Virus record (IMG/VR): IMGVR_UViG_3300005471_000014
Coordinates: 4,927-68,926 of that record
Direction: 5' to 3' (one strand)
From: a virus
Length of the DNA: 64,000 bases
The notes under the pieces are model-generated. The model had not been told where the DNA came from. It ran no database searches and saw only the letters and a program-made list of their open reading frames with translations. Shown here in pieces: positions 9,775 to 18,819 of this stretch. Numbering within the stretch: position 1 is the stretch's first letter; every line of letters begins with the position of its first letter. Both the position numbers and the translations under genes were made by a program.

Positions 9775-10266
9775 TCATGTGCGACCCGCGTACTTTGCGA
9801 GGGTCGCTTCTTGAATGGCGCGCGGAGCGTACCGGATCGAGGCCCATCTCTGGTACTCGCGCGACCACTCCTCAAAGCCTGGATCGTCGGCACACATCGC
9901 CGCCATCTCGCGCGCCGCGCGCGCCATGCCAATTTCAATCTGATAGCGCACCGGATCGGCGGCCTTCATCTCTCGCCACGTTGCTTCGTTCAGGCGCGTG
10001 GCCGCGTCGCGCCGTGGATCGTGCGCGCCCTCGATGACCGGCGCGCGACTACGTAGATCACGAGGCTTCGGGAATGCAGTGTCCTTCGTCGCGGTCGCGA
10101 TGATCCGCTTCACATTCGCCTGGACTTCCGACAGGTGCACATCCTTGAGCGCATCCCAGTAGGCGTTCACGAACGGATCGCCGGCCTCACGCGAACCTCG
10201 CAACGCTGCGCAAAGCTGATCCATGAGCTTCTGGAACGGAGCGAAGTCGCGCTGCGTATCCATCAC
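9775..10266 (-). CDS. putative helicase loader/inhibitor-like replication protein
   Basis: coupled directly after initiator; YWDALKD...FPKPRDL pattern. Confidence 0.45.
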   Translation of the reverse strand: MMDTQRDFAPFQKLMDQLCAALRGSREAGDPFVNAYWDALKDVHLSEVQANVKRIIATATKDTAFPKPRDLRSRAPVIEGAHDPRRDAATRLNEATWREMKAADPVRYQIEIGMARAAREMAAMCADDPGFEEWSREYQRWASIRYAPRAIQEATLAKYAGRT

Positions 10267-11069
10267 GGCGGGTCCACGGGATCATCGGCCGGCGGGCTCC
10301 ACCGTTCAGCCTGTGCCGCATCGGGAGGAACGTCCCAGTCCGCGAGAAAGTGTTTCTCCGGCCCGAGAAACGTCTTCGCTTGCATCACGTACTCGGATCG
10401 ATCCTTGCCCGTCTCCGCGATGAACTTCGCATAGCGCTTCGCGCCCTCGATCATGACCTCCGGCTCGATGCCTTCGTGGATGCGCGCGTTCCATGTGTTC
10501 TGCGCGAGACGCCACGGTTGTCCTCCGGCGCGCATTGGGAATTCGAGCTTGAAGCTCAGAAAGTCTTCATCGACTTCGGTTCCACGGGGAACACGCCCAG
10601 CGCGCGCTGAGCGTCTGCGCTCAGCACTCTTATTCTCAAAGGCAGATGGAGATGGAGATGGAGATGGAGATGGAGGCGTGCGCTCAGCGTCGTGGTCTGC
10701 GCCATTCTCTGCGCGTCGCTCCGCGTCACGCTGAGCGCGACGCTTCTCGTTCGCGAGCGTGGCGCCCAGCGTGTGCCTATCGCGCAGACGCAAGGCGTCT
10801 TTTCTGTGCTCTTCCAAGCGTCTATTGAAGAGACCTTCACCGTTTGCATCGAATTTCGCGCCGACTGTCGTCCAAATGCGCTCGAACTCTCCCTCAGTGA
10901 AACCCGTGATGCGTGCGAGCTGTGAAACATCCGCGGGCACGGCTCCATTGATCCATTGGAAGGCGAGCAAGCTGATGTAAGCGCCACGCTCAGCGCCCGG
11001 CCAATGCAACGTCGCGCCGAACCAGTCCTTGACCCAAAAGGGCATCATCGGAAGGTCGGTACTGCTCAC
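10263..11069 (-). CDS. DUF1376 (YdaU-like) phage replication initiator
   Basis: MPFWVKDWFGATLHW..ERGAYISLL..QW N-terminus, (SP)n linker, C-terminal YVMQAKTFLG; GTG overlaps upstream stop. Confidence 0.8.
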   Translation of the reverse strand: MSSTDLPMMPFWVKDWFGATLHWPGAERGAYISLLAFQWINGAVPADVSQLARITGFTEGEFERIWTTVGAKFDANGEGLFNRRLEEHRKDALRLRDRHTLGATLANEKRRAQRDAERRAENGADHDAERTPPSPSPSPSPSAFENKSAERRRSARAGRVPRGTEVDEDFLSFKLEFPMRAGGQPWRLAQNTWNARIHEGIEPEVMIEGAKRYAKFIAETGKDRSEYVMQAKTFLGPEKHFLADWDVPPDAAQAERWSPPADDPVDPP

Positions 11070-11362
11070 GCCGACGCCTTCACTTGGATGGGGCGGTACC
11101 GGGGCGGCCTCTCGTATCGAGCCTCGCTCCCATCGGCTTGCAGCGTGAAGCCGCGCCAATGAGTCACCCCGCCTGTGGTGAAGATGCCGTGAAGCGTCGC
11201 CGCCTGCGGCCAACGTTGCAGGAGATCGAGATCACGGCGTCGGAGCGTGAGCACCTTCAGGGTCGGCCGATTGACCGTGAGCCAATTGGCGAGCGGCGCC
11301 ATCGAATCGACGACTTCGCTGATCGCGTGATAGCCGCGAAAAGTATTGGAGCGCGCAGTCAC
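11066..11362 (-). CDS. hypothetical phage protein
   Basis: 98-aa ORF between cro-like gene and initiator. Confidence 0.55.
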   Translation of the reverse strand: MTARSNTFRGYHAISEVVDSMAPLANWLTVNRPTLKVLTLRRRDLDLLQRWPQAATLHGIFTTGGVTHWRGFTLQADGSEARYERPPRYRPIQVKASA

Positions 11363-12584: not shown

Positions 12585-13442
12585 ATGGCCGAGGACACGC
12601 AGCCGCTCCCACCGCCACCGCGCGTGGCCGCTGTGTTCGCGGCGATCCGCCGCGTCATGGAGGACATGGCGAAGTCGGGCGTCGGTAAGCTCAAGACCAA
12701 TTCGCAGCAGAATTTCGCCTATCGCGGCGTCGATGACGTGATGGATGCTCTCGCGCCCTCGCTCGCGCGCCACGGGCTCATCATCGTGCCGCACGTCACC
12801 GAGCGCTCGGTCACTGAGCGGGAGTCGCGCCAGGGGAGCAAGCTCTTCCACACGCTGCTCCGAATTGATTACGAATTCATCAGCGTGAGCGATGGCTCGA
12901 TTCACCTCGTCGGCCCGATCTATGGCGAGGCCATGGACAGCGGTGACAAGAGCACCAACAAGGCGATGGCGATCGCCTACAAATATTGCTGCGTGCAGAC
13001 CTTCTGCATCCCGGTCACGGGCGATGACCCGGATGCACAAGCCCACGAGATTGCGGGCGCGCAGGAGCGGGGGAACCTCCCGGCGGACTCGAAGCCCTCC
13101 ACCGGAACCGCTCCTAGCGCGCCCGCGCCTACCTCCGCATCTGCTCCGGAGCCGCACGCACCACGACGGGAGGTGCCGATCGGCGCCGATGGCAAGCCAC
13201 GCGTTTTGCGCAGTGGCGGCAATTTCGGCTACGGCAAGAAATTCGCGACGACCCCATGGGAGATGATGACGAAGCGCGACCTCGAATGGTTTCGCGACGC
13301 CGAGCGCACCCCCGAAAACGTGCGCACCAAGATCGACATCGAGTTGGCGTGGCGCGCCTATGACAACGCGATCTTTGAATCCGCGCGTGATGCCGATCGC
13401 GCCGCCGCCGACGCCGTGCCCTTCGACGACAGGATTCCGTGA
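12585..13442 (+). CDS. ERF-family single-strand annealing protein
   Basis: NFAYRGVDDV..LARHGL..GEAMDSGDKSTNKAMAIAYKY..F.IP..DDPD. Confidence 0.85.
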   Translation: MAEDTQPLPPPPRVAAVFAAIRRVMEDMAKSGVGKLKTNSQQNFAYRGVDDVMDALAPSLARHGLIIVPHVTERSVTERESRQGSKLFHTLLRIDYEFISVSDGSIHLVGPIYGEAMDSGDKSTNKAMAIAYKYCCVQTFCIPVTGDDPDAQAHEIAGAQERGNLPADSKPSTGTAPSAPAPTSASAPEPHAPRREVPIGADGKPRVLRSGGNFGYGKKFATTPWEMMTKRDLEWFRDAERTPENVRTKIDIELAWRAYDNAIFESARDADRAAADAVPFDDRIP

Positions 13443-14298: not shown

Positions 14299-15177
14299 AT
14301 GACAAAGCCAACGAAAATCGAATTGCCGCCGCTGAAGCTCGCCCACGCTGAAGTCGGGATTGTGGGCGACACGCCGCTCATCGTGCATGCGTGGAGTCAG
14401 AAGGCGCGCGAGGAGATGTTGCGCAAGCAGATGAAGCTCCCCGTACATCGCACGAGCAAGGACCCAGTGGATGCGTTCCTGCGCTCGATGTATCGCACGG
14501 ATGAGAATTTCTATGGCGTGCCCGCGGTCGGGGTCAAGAATGCAATGGTGACGGCGTGCACGTCCGTCGATGGGATCACGAAGACGGCTGCGCGACAGGC
14601 GTTCATCATCGTCGGCGAGAGAGGCAAGACGAAGGCCGCGTTCGCCGATCTATTTTCACCGCAGGACTTGGTGCGCATCCTGTCGCCCAATCCGCCGACG
14701 TTGCGCGAGGACATGGTGCGCCTCGCCGGCATCGGCAACACGGCGGACCTCCGTTACCGCGCCGAGTATTGGCCATGGGGAGCAAAGCTCACCATTCGCT
14801 ACAACGCGAACGTGCTCTCGCTCGATCAGCTCGCGAATTTGCTCAACACGTCGGGCTTCGGCGTCGGATTGTGCGAGTGGCGCCCGGAGAGAGATGGTCA
14901 GTCGGGCACCTTTCACGTCGCCGATGAGCACGACATGAAGATGCTCTCATCGCGAGCGTGGCTCACGCATCGCGAGCCCGAGCTGCCCGATGTCTCGGCG
15001 TGGATGCGCAAGATGAACGCCGAGAACCAAATAGCCGAGGGGAGCGTGCGCGCCGTCGCACGGCGTGGACGGCAGAAAGTCGCGATCCCCGAGGCGGCGA
15101 ATGATCCCGTGTTCGCACCGCCGGAGGCCCCGCAACCACGGCGGCGCCGTCGCAATGGTGCCGAGGAGATCGCGTGA
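14299..15177 (+). CDS. stand-alone RAMP (Cas7/Csm3-like) RNA-binding protein
   Basis: beta1 motif IVGDTPLIVH, helix motif VPAVGVKNAM, C-terminal Gly-loop GFGVGLCEWRPERDGQSGTF; no other cas genes. Confidence 0.7.
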   Translation: MTKPTKIELPPLKLAHAEVGIVGDTPLIVHAWSQKAREEMLRKQMKLPVHRTSKDPVDAFLRSMYRTDENFYGVPAVGVKNAMVTACTSVDGITKTAARQAFIIVGERGKTKAAFADLFSPQDLVRILSPNPPTLREDMVRLAGIGNTADLRYRAEYWPWGAKLTIRYNANVLSLDQLANLLNTSGFGVGLCEWRPERDGQSGTFHVADEHDMKMLSSRAWLTHREPELPDVSAWMRKMNAENQIAEGSVRAVARRGRQKVAIPEAANDPVFAPPEAPQPRRRRRNGAEEIA

Positions 15178-15635
15178 ATCGCGAGATCAAGGAAGCGCTC
15201 GATCAGATTGCAGAGAGCGACGAGCACGGGCGCCTGCGCGCGGAAGCGATCCTCGATCGCGCGAAGACGCGCAGCTCCCCGCTCCATCCGTGTTTCACCT
15301 GGGATGACGGCAAGGCGGCGGCGCGGTGGCGCATCGAAGAGGCACGCGGCTTGATCCGAAGTTACAGCGTCGTCATCGAGCAGGCGCATCCGATCCTGAC
15401 GCGCGCGTACGTGAGTTTGAAATCTTCGCGTGTGCAGGGCGGAGGCTATACGTCGATCCAGCGCATTCTCTCGGATCGCGAACTGCATGCCGAAATGCTG
15501 CGTGATGCGCTCGAAGAGATCGGGGAAGTCGAGCGCCGTTACGGACACTTGCGTGAATTGCAACCGGTGTTCGCGGAGGCGCGCAAGGTGAAACGTCGAG
15601 CGAAAGTCGCGAAGGTCGAGCCCGCGCATGCGTGA
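15174..15635 (+). CDS. phage protein coupled to the RAMP gene
   Basis: GTGA overlap; SPLHPCFTWDD..AA..WR...AR.LIRS motif; array starts 2 nt after stop. Confidence 0.75.
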   Translation: MNREIKEALDQIAESDEHGRLRAEAILDRAKTRSSPLHPCFTWDDGKAAARWRIEEARGLIRSYSVVIEQAHPILTRAYVSLKSSRVQGGGYTSIQRILSDRELHAEMLRDALEEIGEVERRYGHLRELQPVFAEARKVKRRAKVAKVEPAHA

Positions 15636-15637
15636 GT

Positions 15638-16500
15638 GGCAGGAAGGTAAGCGCTAGGAAGGGACCGGCCCCGATCGGGACGGCAAGGAATGCTTGGCTA
15701 GTTGGGGATTGGCAGGCGAGGCCGCTTGAGGCGCGTAGAGGCTGATCTTGGTGCGTCTCGTCGATGTTGGACTGGCATGGCCCGGCAGGCGAGGTTGCGC
15801 GAGTTGCGCAAGGGCGAAGTAATGCGAGGGATGGCAGGACGGGATTCGCTCTGTGTCGCGCGGACAGGCGAGGACTCGCGGTGACAGGTTTGGTTTGGGC
15901 TTGGACCGGCAGCCTTGGCATCGCGAGGCGCGAGCGGGGCAAGGTCGGGACAGGACCGGCCGGCATGGTGGCGAATGCAATGGATGGGCGACTCATGCGT
16001 TGGCGCGGCGATTCGAGGATGGGCAGCCAAGGCGGTGCATTGGTGGCGTCGCTGGATGCGGCAGGCTTGGCTTGCATAGCGCGGGCAACGCTCGGGAAGG
16101 CTCGGCCGGAACGGCTCGGATTGTCGGCGTGGTGTTGGAGTGCATTGGATCGGCTGGATAGGTTTCGCAGTGCCGGGCCACGACAGGACGGGCCGGATAG
16201 CGATGGCGGGTCGATGCTGCGACAGGCACGGACAGGACCGGCGACGCAGGCGCGGCTTCGCTGCTCGCGGGCGGGATCGCATAGGCATGGCGAGCATTGC
16301 CAGCGCGCGGCGAGCGACGGCAGGCGAGTTGTCGGTCAGGCACGGACAGGACCGACTTTGCGGTGCGCGGATTGGACAGGCTGGCATGGTCCGGCAAGCC
16401 CCTGCGGGGCTTTGAGGGCGGAGGCACGGCAAGGCAGGCATGGGCGGCGGGGTGCTGCGCGCGAAGGCAAGGAACGCATTGGCGTGGCCGGTGAGGCGGT
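15638..16500 (+). repeat. non-coding pentamer-periodic (GGN-NN) array of ~15 units, putative guide-RNA precursor
   Basis: 5-nt phase e.g. GGCA|GGACG|GGATT|CGCTC|TGTGT|CGCGC|GGACA|GGCGA|GGACT|CGCGG|TGACA|GGTTT|GGTTT; strong G skew; units start at GGCA/GGCC/GGCT tetramers. Confidence 0.8.
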
Positions 16501-16504
16501 TGGG

Positions 16505-16538
16505 CGCACACAGCCTGTTTGCACACAGGCTGTGTGCA
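16505..16538. promoter_or_regulatory. two overlapping operator copies before xis-int
   Basis: CGCACACAGCCTGTTTGCA (16505-16523) and TGCACACAGGCTGTGTGCA (16520-16538). Confidence 0.8.
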
Positions 16539-16554
16539 AATAAACAGGCCACAA

Positions 16555-16932
16555 GTGTCAAATGCCGCCGACACCGCCACGCCCGAAGCGGAATATACGG
16601 AGAAGCAGATTGCGGACCGGATGCAGGTGAAGGTCCGCGATGTGAAGTGGCTGATGAGAACGGGTCAACTGGAATTCATGAAGGTCACGCCGCGCAAGTG
16701 GCGCATCACCGAGAACCAATACCAGCGCTACAAAGCGCGGAAGGAAGCGGAGGCCGCATGCCGCGCGAAGATCGACTTACCTACAAGGGCTACTACCTCA
16801 TCGAGCCCGAGGCCAATAGTAAGTCCCCCTGCTACCTCATCGCCTGGTACGACGCTAAGTCCGGACAACGACGCACTCGTACAACTGGCGTCGAGAATGT
16901 TAGCCCGGAGAGCAAAGACCAAGCCCACCTGA
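16555..16932 (+). CDS. excisionase-like HTH (MerR/HTH_17-type) protein
   Basis: YTEKQIADRMQVKVRDVKWLMRTGQL..KWRIT; directly upstream of and overlapping integrase. Confidence 0.7.
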   Translation: MSNAADTATPEAEYTEKQIADRMQVKVRDVKWLMRTGQLEFMKVTPRKWRITENQYQRYKARKEAEAACRAKIDLPTRATTSSSPRPIVSPPATSSPGTTLSPDNDALVQLASRMLARRAKTKPT

Positions 16933-18386
16933 AGCTCATCAAATACGCGAACGCTCACCCGCTGCTCGTTCGTCAGGCGGCAGCCGCTGAAGCGAGTCTC
17001 GCGCGCCAGTTCGCGAACACGAAGCCGCTGACCGACGAGGAAGTGAAAGTGCTCGCGCAGGAGGCAGCGGACTCGGTCGAGGCGCAACCGGATTGGGCCA
17101 AGCGCGAGCCGGTAGATGATCTACCGCTCAGCGCCGTGATGATGCAGTACCTCGCGCTGCGCACGTACATCAAGAACAAGGGTCGAGTCGTGAGCGCGCT
17201 CGCGGACTTCCAAGAAGTGTTCGGCAAGAACGTGACCTGTCGGCAACTCACCGGCGCGGCCCAGCACACCTTTGTCGCGAACCGTCGCGCGCTCATCGAC
17301 CCGACGACGGGGCTGCGTCAACAAACGGACTGGACGATCCTCACGCGCATGAAGAGTGCGTGGGCGGCGATGAACGATGCGGTTGAGATGAACACGTTGA
17401 AGCGCAAGGCCGTGCCGCGACGGCTGTCGGCGCGCAAGTGGAAGCCGAAGGCGTTCCTGAAGAAGCGCAAGGTGACCCTGCCGTTGGAGTCGATCGCGAA
17501 GTTGATTATGGTCGCGTGGCAGAATCCCGAGCGCTGGCTGCCTTTCATTCTTCAGGGCATCGAGTATTGCTGCCGCCCGATGGGGGCGCTCGATGCCGAG
17601 CCCCGCAACTACGATCCGGAGAGCGAGACCGTCTCACTCCTCGCCTATGGCGAGAATGGCGAACAGGTCGAGGAGAGCGACAAGCGTCGGGCAATCGTGA
17701 AGCTCAGCCCGACGATGCAGCGGTGGCTGAAGTTCTGGTGCGCCAAGAAACGGCAGGCGCCGCAATGGCACGACCCGCAGTTCGTCACGTACATGGGTCA
17801 CCGGATGGTGACGTTCGACTTCTTCATGGTGATCGCGAAGCGCGCCGGGGTCACGATCCCGCGTGGCCTCGGCGCCTACATCCTGCGAAAATTCGCCGCG
17901 TCACAGTTGGCCAAGCGCAAGGTCAAACGGGAGGAACGACGGGTGCGGCTCGGACATGACATCGATCAAGACCCAGTGTCGAGTGGGTACGTGCATTTGG
18001 AGCCCGACTATCAGGCCGAAGCCGCTGCCGCGCTTGAACAGATGTGGCACGAGATCGATGCGTTTCTGCCGCCCGAGATGACGATTCTCGTGCCGCATGA
18101 TGCGGTGGGCGAGTTGGTCAGCGGGGACGCGGACACGGAGGCTGCGGCGCTCTATGTACCGGGAAAGCGGCCCCAGGATCGAGTCATGCACCTCGACCCG
18201 GTGCGAGAGGATCAAGCGGAGCCTGGACGCTACGCGACATGGTTTTGGGAGCAGTTCCAAGGGGCCGCTTTTAGGCTGCATCCGGGACCGTGGCACGAGC
18301 GTGGCACGCGTCGGACGAATCAGCACAGTAAACAGGAGGTTACAGAGACTGTGGCAGTCCCTGACAAGGACCCGCCAAGTGAATGA
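16758..18386 (+). CDS. int: tyrosine recombinase / integrase
   Basis: catalytic pattern R (YCCRP), K (SDKR), YILR (HxxR variant), LGH, Y (GYVH); GGAGG upstream of ATG 16758. Confidence 0.75.
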   Translation: MPREDRLTYKGYYLIEPEANSKSPCYLIAWYDAKSGQRRTRTTGVENVSPESKDQAHLKLIKYANAHPLLVRQAAAAEASLARQFANTKPLTDEEVKVLAQEAADSVEAQPDWAKREPVDDLPLSAVMMQYLALRTYIKNKGRVVSALADFQEVFGKNVTCRQLTGAAQHTFVANRRALIDPTTGLRQQTDWTILTRMKSAWAAMNDAVEMNTLKRKAVPRRLSARKWKPKAFLKKRKVTLPLESIAKLIMVAWQNPERWLPFILQGIEYCCRPMGALDAEPRNYDPESETVSLLAYGENGEQVEESDKRRAIVKLSPTMQRWLKFWCAKKRQAPQWHDPQFVTYMGHRMVTFDFFMVIAKRAGVTIPRGLGAYILRKFAASQLAKRKVKREERRVRLGHDIDQDPVSSGYVHLEPDYQAEAAAALEQMWHEIDAFLPPEMTILVPHDAVGELVSGDADTEAAALYVPGKRPQDRVMHLDPVREDQAEPGRYATWFWEQFQGAAFRLHPGPWHERGTRRTNQHSKQEVTETVAVPDKDPPSE

Positions 18387-18819
18387 AATCACCCACTTGC
18401 AGGTCGTCATTGCGCATCGCATGACAACAGAGAACAATGGCTCGCGGTTGCCTCCGTGGCAGCCCGTGGCAGTCGGTCCTGGCAGGCAGCCGACTCAAGT
18501 AGCACCGCGCTCCTAGAAGCGCACGGGGGAAGGCACTTGAGTACCGACAGCACGCCCAGTGCGCGCGATCGTGCGTTCGCTGCTGGCGAGAGTATTGGCG
18601 AATCGCTCGCGCGCGAGCACACGCACGCCGCCGAGCACGTCTTCCAAGTCTTTGCCGTTGGGGCGCCGTCCGCGCCCGTCACTCACTCCGAAATGTTGCG
18701 CGTCATGTGGGGTAGCTACCTCGGGCACCTCGTGGGTCATACCGCGCGCGTCATCGGCACGGATGTCGCCAGCATGTTGCAGCAGCTCGTCGCCATGCAG
18801 GCCGAGGAGGAGCGCCGCC

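Follow-up and report, generated by a model that had tools for sequence, protein, structure and literature searches.

What is the function of a G-rich tract of 863 nt (15638-16500) in a phage genome? The window analysed here is a stretch of 64,000 nt that makes up most of a 68,926-bp phage record (IMG/VR IMGVR_UViG_3300005471_000014), and all positions below refer to this stretch. The original prediction, made from the letters of the DNA, proposed that the tract is composed of pentamers with two informative bases each, and that phase-breaking tetramers (GGCA, GGCC, GGCT and once CGCA) divide it into separate guides. On the basis of the current results, we consider, with a probability of about 0.85, that this 69-kb phage carries a VIPR system and that the tract serves as its guide array.

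The tract contains 378 G, 206 C, 142 A and 137 T, and G autocorrelation at lag 5 is +0.29. Its Fourier spectrum peaks at 4.9 and 4.85 nt and not at 5.0 nt (power 8.3 and 6.8, respectively, versus a mean of 0.25); a peak slightly below 5 nt is expected from a pentamer array with regular 4-nt steps. When the whole 68,926-bp phage genome was scanned in segments of 300 nt, power above 2 was found only in eight consecutive segments, with starts from 15575 to 16275. Within 15638-16500, TRF found no direct repeats longer than 20 nt with unique spacers and reported only a 9-nt, 2.6-copy row, and the tract differs from a CRISPR array in having no repeat-spacer arrangement. No Rfam family, including any ribozyme, was found in 14500-17500 on either strand (E≤1). 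A blastn search of 14300-18400 against 50,697 phage records gave no match, and nothing relevant was found in the literature on pentanucleotide periodicity. Three array pieces (15670-15963, 15670-15951 and 16162-16419) were found again with 0 differences in rhizosphere contigs, which came from three further runs belonging to different studies; near-identical phages therefore recur. No array variants were seen, as contigs of four DNA runs gave identical fragments only. Directly 3′ of the array there is a perfect 13-bp hairpin (16507-16538, + strand), which TRF in addition reports as a repeat of 15 nt in 2.2 copies; the fold of 16486-16570 has an energy of -43.9 kcal/mol (z -3.76). This hairpin has no T-run and received no terminator call. 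A hairpin likewise follows right after the arrays of two related loci (L007 and L013).

Two genes on the same strand precede the tract. The first, vipr (14299-15177, +; P0034, phrog_4652), encodes a Cas7-like RAMP protein of 292 aa, as judged by family profile and fold. Comparison of the phrog_4652 family profile with PDB identified 36pp_D, 'SUSP1 Vipr protein' (E 6.1e-9), with the alignment extending over the thumb R and the G-loop GxGxEWRP. In the HMM alignment, R154 of the window Vipr corresponds to thumb residue R138 of SUSP1 and E193-W194-R195 to the G-loop residues D177-W178-R179, and these positions vary little or not at all among 15 family members. An AF2 model of Vipr (pLDDT 82) gave 44 PDB matches with E≤1e-3 in Foldseek; among the matches listed, all were CRISPR effector-complex entries (Csm, Cmr and types III-D, III-E and VII). 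The second gene (15174-15635, +; 153 aa, phrog_15946) ends 2 nt before the tract and was designated as a vap-like accessory gene on the basis of synteny. Its relatives adjoin a period-5 G tract in all eight viral (IMG/VR) loci and in two of six bacterial genome-assembly loci. The AF2 model of this protein has a pLDDT of 89, and its fold gave weak forkhead/winged-helix rows (Foldseek E 0.4-1; VIA Z 5.7-6.2 for residues 1-100). Loci differ in how vipr, vap and array are ordered, and every order was seen in the relatives. Pfam and NCBIfam yielded nothing useful for vipr, vap and their neighbours (no match at all for vap), and no close relatives of the window Vipr were found in IMG/VR. The module contains no nuclease gene, and the locus, which is phage-borne, has no other cas genes.

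Several additional observations were made on this module and its surroundings. Homologues of Vipr (36-40% identity) occur in cultured Gordonia and Mycobacterium phages and in one Pseudomonas aeruginosa phage (records H9-H33), where, among the matches listed, they are annotated as hypothetical proteins. In the window, an Erf-family annealing protein is encoded at 12585-13442 and a DnaD-like replication initiator on the other strand at 10263-11213 (-). A weak integrase match (phrog_1, E 1e-8) was found at 16758-18386, just downstream of the array and preceded by a small ORF. One related locus (L006) has arrays on both sides of its vap gene (1-150 and 640-860), with CGCA as the tetramer. Four of the six genome loci with a vap homologue (L009-L012, in CPR, Clostridiales, Lachnospiraceae and Ructibacterium MAGs) have no period-5 tract in the flanking DNA examined, which extends for 3 kb at most on either side.

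VIPR (Viral Interference Programmable Repeat) was described in 2026 as a phage-borne system of a minimal RAMP protein (Vipr) and an accessory gene, vap (10.64898/2026.04.26.720920). According to this preprint, its guide RNAs (vrRNAs) consist of 9-16 YNNGG repeats; the protein holds GGY, and pairing with DNA is confined to NN. One base of the target is skipped per repeat, and most targets are coding sequences in which the skipped base occupies the wobble position (10.64898/2026.04.26.720920). In the structural account, H17 and D177 contact G1, R138 and W178 contact G2, R179 of the next protomer contacts Y3, and the Y pocket excludes purines (10.64898/2026.04.26.720927). Beside the type II arrays, the preprint describes 'staggered arrays with overlapping vrRNAs'; according to the legend of Fig. 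S18, neighbouring vrRNAs overlap by 1 nt, the end of one being the start of the next, and the legend mentions 'individual processed vrRNAs' (10.64898/2026.04.26.720920). As presented there, small-RNA sequencing confirmed only ribozyme arrays and single-vrRNA systems, not staggered arrays (10.64898/2026.04.26.720920). Where two pentamer registers overlap by 1 nt, a 4-nt unit results, and this staggered signature is the punctuation noticed in the original prediction.

The window locus resembles the staggered arrays, as far as these are known from the legend, in its pentamers of GGY and NN, the lack of a tail between guides, the single shared nucleotide and the presence of vipr and vap in a phage. 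It contains 16 GGCN/CGCA tetramers with the next repeat directly after each, an arrangement that is shared by 59 other arrays, and its units carry 7-14 GG[C/A]NN repeats each, although these are degenerate (61% GG and 38% GGY). With the type II VIPR systems of Escherichia phage SUSP1 and a Pseudomonas fulva prophage, as described in the preprint, it shares a homologous Vipr with the same G-loop and thumb residues, the pentamer code and the 1-nt skip with the skipped base at wobble positions. It differs from type II VIPR, whose vrRNAs of ~100 nt each carry an invariable 3′ tail with a pseudoknot, in that the window units abut and are tail-less. Neither an invariable structured 3′ tail nor any conserved segment other than repeats was found between the window tetramers, and a single hairpin follows the whole array. 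Position 3 is often A in the window array, unlike the GGY described for type II VIPR. A more distant likeness is to the backbones of Class 1 CRISPR complexes (Cas7/Csm3/Cmr4 on crRNA), which have the RAMP fold, one protomer per fixed number of RNA bases and bases flipped out at regular intervals; the period here is 5 with 2 pairing bases, whereas that of CRISPR is 6 with 5. From its sequence, the window array is of the staggered kind, and the tetramers are the limits of its guides, which have 7-14 repeats each.

Inspection of the tract bore out the proposed punctuation. All 15 tetramers of the original prediction were found at their positions, the 14 spacings between them (73, 73, 49, 75, 50, 64, 38, 44, 48, 39, 54, 74, 60 and 54 nt) were exactly reproduced, and a 16th canonical tetramer (GGCC at 16486) was present beyond the earlier list. 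It was also correct that 7 of the 14 spacings are exactly 4+5n (49, 64, 44, 39, 54, 74 and 54) and that the other seven are off by 1 nt. Each of these seven contains exactly one irregular internal unit (GCTT, TGTT, GGGCTT, GAGCGG, TGGT, TGTT and GTTGTC), whereas the seven exact spacings contain none. As the M78 match of unit 15711 (see below) passes through one of these irregular units, TGTT, the deviations of 1 nt are explained.

The resulting array (15638-16500, + strand) has 16 canonical tetramers and about 15 guides made of GG[C/A]NN pentamers. GGCA opens unit 1 (15638-15710, 73 nt, 14 repeats with one irregular, GCTT; target not found), unit 2 (15711-15783, 73 nt, 14 repeats with one irregular, TGTT; spelling [DE]R[DE]A[DE][CW][FL]AS[DE][FL]L[IM]P), unit 3 (15784-15832, 49 nt, 9 repeats; target not found), unit 4 (15833-15907, 75 nt, 14 repeats with one of 6 nt, GGGCTT; spelling RFSVAHELGH...), unit 5 (15908-15957, 50 nt, 9 repeats with one of 6 nt; target not found), unit 7 (16022-16059, 38 nt, 7 repeats with one irregular, TGGT), unit 8 (16060-16103, 44 nt, 8 repeats), unit 13 (16319-16378, 60 nt, 11 repeats with one of 6 nt; spelling the JAMM-like [DE]S[HQ]T[HQ]P[FL]GA[FL][HQ]) and unit 15 (16433-16485, 53 nt, 10 repeats with one irregular, GGGC). 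GGCC opens unit 6 (15958-16021, 64 nt, 12 repeats; target not found), unit 9 (16104-16151, 48 nt, 9 repeats with one irregular, TGTT) and unit 11 (16191-16244, 54 nt, 10 repeats; spelling Y[IM]G[DE][CW][HQ]T[HQ]P[DE]). GGCT opens unit 10 (16152-16190, 39 nt, 7 repeats) and unit 14 (16379-16432, 54 nt, 10 repeats; 0 exact matches), and CGCA opens unit 12 (16245-16318, 74 nt, 14 repeats; target not found). The 16th tetramer, GGCC, is followed by 2 repeats and the end of the array (16486-16500).

The original prediction had further expected that an unbiased segmentation would recover the same boundaries. Segmentation was carried out in two ways, with a cyclic HMM of five states that allowed steps of 4 nt and 6 nt. 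When trained on the tract alone, the model learned G (.75), G (.81) and C/A (.54/.26) followed by near-even N N, and called 18 four-nt steps and one insertion; 11 of 14 interior boundaries were recovered, and a 12th had a step placed 6 nt away from it. When the emissions were instead fixed by hand on the basis of cleaner arrays of related loci, the window not being used in training, all 15 tetramers were recovered together with GGCC at 16486. Extra calls of this second model comprised six 4-nt units (15692, 15765, 16041, 16133, 16442 and 16486) and three 6-nt units. The window array is the most degenerate of the 60 arrays compared, with 61% of pentamers starting with GG, 38% with GGY and A at position 3 in 26%, although A should be excluded by the published Y pocket. 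A boundary in it is a repeat that keeps its GGC but has a single variable base, and GG comes immediately after it (at 15908 and 16022, a degenerate GC). The irregular units without GG (TGTT, GCTT, TGGT and the three 6-mers) are wear internal to guides, which target reading passes over; the 15 original marks are real boundaries, and the extra HMM breaks are not.

To what extent this grammar is shared was examined in related loci. A contig scan with the Vipr alignment yielded 80 metagenome loci with a vipr homologue; an array was identified in 48 of them under a strict rule and in 10 earlier loci, and many of the remainder were short contigs. The comparison covered 60 distinct arrays, including that of the window, with tetramers called by HMM. 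The 254 tetramers consisted of GGCA (176), GGCC (27), GGCT (11), AGCA (9), CGCA (6) and others (25), and the tetramer logo was G.91 G.99 C.95 A.81 followed by G1.00 G.97 C.81. In the 59 arrays other than that of the window, almost all inter-tetramer distances (173 of 175) were 4+5n, with peaks at 44 (36), 49 (42) and 54 (32) nt and 140 of them within 39-59 nt. Considering both this regularity and the common GGCA logo, the tetramer is a conserved and quantised feature of the clade and not the result of chance deletions. Unit sizes are mostly 39-59 nt in the relatives versus 38-75 nt in the window. The same GGCNN/GGCA grammar was also observed at L013:3426-4050 and L014:2220-2660, in an assembly labelled Deltaproteobacteria and a Firmicutes MAG (Galloscillospira), and the clade therefore crosses phyla.

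The guides of related loci also allowed the target code to be tested locally. We compared 225 units of at least seven pentamers with 520,633 bases, using a threshold of 85% of NN letters. A skip of 1 nt gave 172 matches, compared with 64 for skip 0, 66 for skip 2 and 71 for shuffled guides. The excess of 1-nt-skip matches is due to guides of three loci that match conserved codons of rival vipr genes. These guides (L045:4707, L019:2786 and L083:4553) have matches in vipr at 27, 19 and 12 other loci, respectively, all on the coding strand; the first matches the Vipr G-loop VG.GEWRPE and the second EML.KQMK, which are among the best conserved parts of Vipr. In the alignments with vipr targets, the perfect stretch opens with the pentamer that follows GGCA or closes with the one that precedes it. 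Matching of these guides is 85-94% inside the tetramers versus 48-72% beyond them, the latter being an inflated upper bound as the best of seven registers was taken. No guide of other loci matched vipr or vap of the present phage at 80% or more, and no window guide matched any of 153 vipr/vap family proteins at 85% or more.

For the window guides, IMG/VR was scanned by exact IUPAC matching with four 20-base patterns and one 18-base pattern. Two of the four 20-base scans (units 16191 and 15833) gave one match each, both in frame, in the sense direction, with skipped bases at the wobble position and on catalytic motifs; the other two (units 16379 and 15711) gave 0 matches. Both exact DNA matches start right after a GGCN tetramer, and one of them, that in cap3, also ends at the next tetramer. 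The 18-base core of unit 16319 had a sole exact match, which was out of frame and was taken as chance. The empty scans also give a measure of how seldom patterns of this kind find a match. For 12 of the 15 window units no target was identified, the IMG/VR scans being capped and limited to exact matches.

Unit 16191 (10 repeats) has its exact 20/20 match at L095:10789-10817(+), where every skipped base falls at the wobble position and the target spells YIGEWHTHPE in a 167-aa ORF for a Prok-JAB protein (JAB/Cap3). The JAB gene closes a complete type II CBASS operon, in which it follows the genes for a phospholipase effector, a cyclase and E1-E2; the 52,678-bp record that carries this operon is classed as a provirus by IMG/VR. 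The codons flanking the target do not match the units next to 16191. The degenerate peptide of this unit agrees at nine or more of 10 positions with 106 of 120 Cap3-like proteins and at eight or more with all 120, whereas the shuffled maximum is 6. On the target provirus, 0 of 100 shuffles reach its score, and it is the only window unit that stands out; no other window guide exceeded shuffles there. Among the homologues listed, those of Cap3 with organism names are mostly from Burkholderiales, and a protein identical to the Cap3 target is named at NCBI for a Ralstonia solanacearum plasmid (megaplasmid). A single-protein search of IMG/VR for Cap3 relatives returned the same contig only.

The other two guides point to Peptidase_M78 (ImmA/IrrE-type) proteins, for which 150 diverse family representatives served as the comparison set. 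The first 10 repeats of unit 15833 match L101:607-635(-) exactly (20/20), in frame and with the skipped base at the wobble position, and spell RFSVAHELGH, the HEXXH motif of a 152-aa protein whose gene lies at the edge of a provirus record. As a 14-mer, this unit agrees at 70% or more with 55 of the 150 representatives (shuffled maximum 8). Unit 15711 matches the second conserved motif of M78/ImmA-IrrE peptidases, with its best match in ERDANLFASELLMP (12/14). With all 14 repeats it reaches 70% or more in 69 of the 150 representatives (shuffled maximum 8), compared with 14 of 150 when only the 10 repeats before TGTT are used, which indicates that the match continues through TGTT and that the last two letters of TGTT serve as NN. 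No M78 or Prok-JAB gene is present in the phage itself. Conserved catalytic motifs thus appear to be the targets of no fewer than three guides, two directed at M78 peptidase genes of prophages and one at cap3 of type II CBASS. The proposal that the tetramers delimit guides of 7-14 pentamers with NN as the informative part is supported by these data, since three units spell protein motifs and the exact matches start after GGCN, and it agrees with what has been published on VIPR.

Alternative explanations of the tract should also be considered. That it is no guide array, being instead a protein-coding frame or a G-rich structural element (R-loop origin, G-quadruplex tract or RNA sponge), is hardly credible. 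Long ORFs are indeed present on both strands (15764-16543, + and 15698-16561, -); however, open frames are expected where stop-forming letters are scarce, the periodicity is 4.9 nt, and for no base is the main peak at 3 nt. A GC skew of +0.2 would be in keeping with a G-rich element, but the module, the grammar and the in-frame target matches are all explained by VIPR. Further candidates were dropped on the PDB match to Vipr, including a TRAP-like ring-binding RNA, a CsrA-type sponge, a G-quadruplex or R-loop origin, a rut/Rho element on the minus strand, a ToxI-like type III antitoxin array and a pentapeptide-repeat ORF.

It also appears rather improbable that the array is decaying and largely inactive, with most units being relics and the tetramers the remains of old boundaries. 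The GG content of the array (61%) is the lowest of the 60 arrays, seven units carry 1-nt indels and 12 of the 15 units are without a target, all of which would be expected under decay. On the other hand, units that contain an indel still agree with the conserved motifs at 12/14 and 11/14 positions when read through it, vipr and vap are intact with conserved contact residues, and array stretches are unchanged in contigs of three other runs. Not very likely, though deserving of some weight, is the idea that the VIPR array is left uncut at its tetramers, so that it would act as one long RNA in which GGCN breaks the register and separate Vipr filaments lie side by side. This is consistent with the lack of a nuclease gene in the module and of any ribozyme or other Rfam family in 14500-17500, and a repeat with a single variable base could not continue a filament that, in the published structural account, needs 5 nt per protomer (10.64898/2026.04.26.720927). 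Against it, the Fig. S18 legend speaks of 'individual processed vrRNAs', and vrRNAs are published as discrete species (10.64898/2026.04.26.720920).

The mode of action of this array may be outlined by homology with the SUSP1 and P. fulva systems. The array would be transcribed on the + strand, probably together with vipr and vap. By the same homology, each Vipr protomer would hold the GGY of a single repeat and expose its two variable bases, these dinucleotides would pair with DNA reading NN-x-NN-x..., and the bound complex may silence transcription. At the tetramers, either cutting or filament nucleation could take place.

A possible role of the guides in counter-defence is more speculative. 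The phage might use them against bacterial immunity as well as against rival prophages, RNA-guided silencing then being a form of counter-defence; we regard this as unlikely at present. If true, one guide would correspond to the JAMM block that is invariant in cap3, a gene of type II CBASS operons in Burkholderiaceae-type hosts, and it is of relevance here that unit 16319 spells a second JAMM-like block. However, as Cap3 is last in its operon, a roadblock there would not obviously lower the upstream genes, and as the CBASS operon lies on a provirus, guide 16191 may simply aim at a rival element. The terms 'CBASS' and 'anti-defense' are absent from the main text of two of the three VIPR preprints of 2026.

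Staggered arrays have so far been documented by one supplementary figure in the preprint (10.64898/2026.04.26.720920). To this, the window locus contributes, together with 59 related arrays, a sequence rule for the limits between guides, along with target-based evidence that this rule is correct. What is new here includes the boundary consensus, GGC[A/C/T] followed by GG, the distribution of unit sizes, the read-through of internal indels and the predicted targets. It is also of interest that a naive reading of the raw sequence can recover the grammar of such a system. If the internal units of 4 and 6 nt are indeed read through, the Vipr filament would tolerate register errors in the GGY part of a repeat and not in NN. 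Finally, with ImmA-type switch proteases and a gene of CBASS as candidate natural targets, the biology of this clade becomes accessible to experiment.
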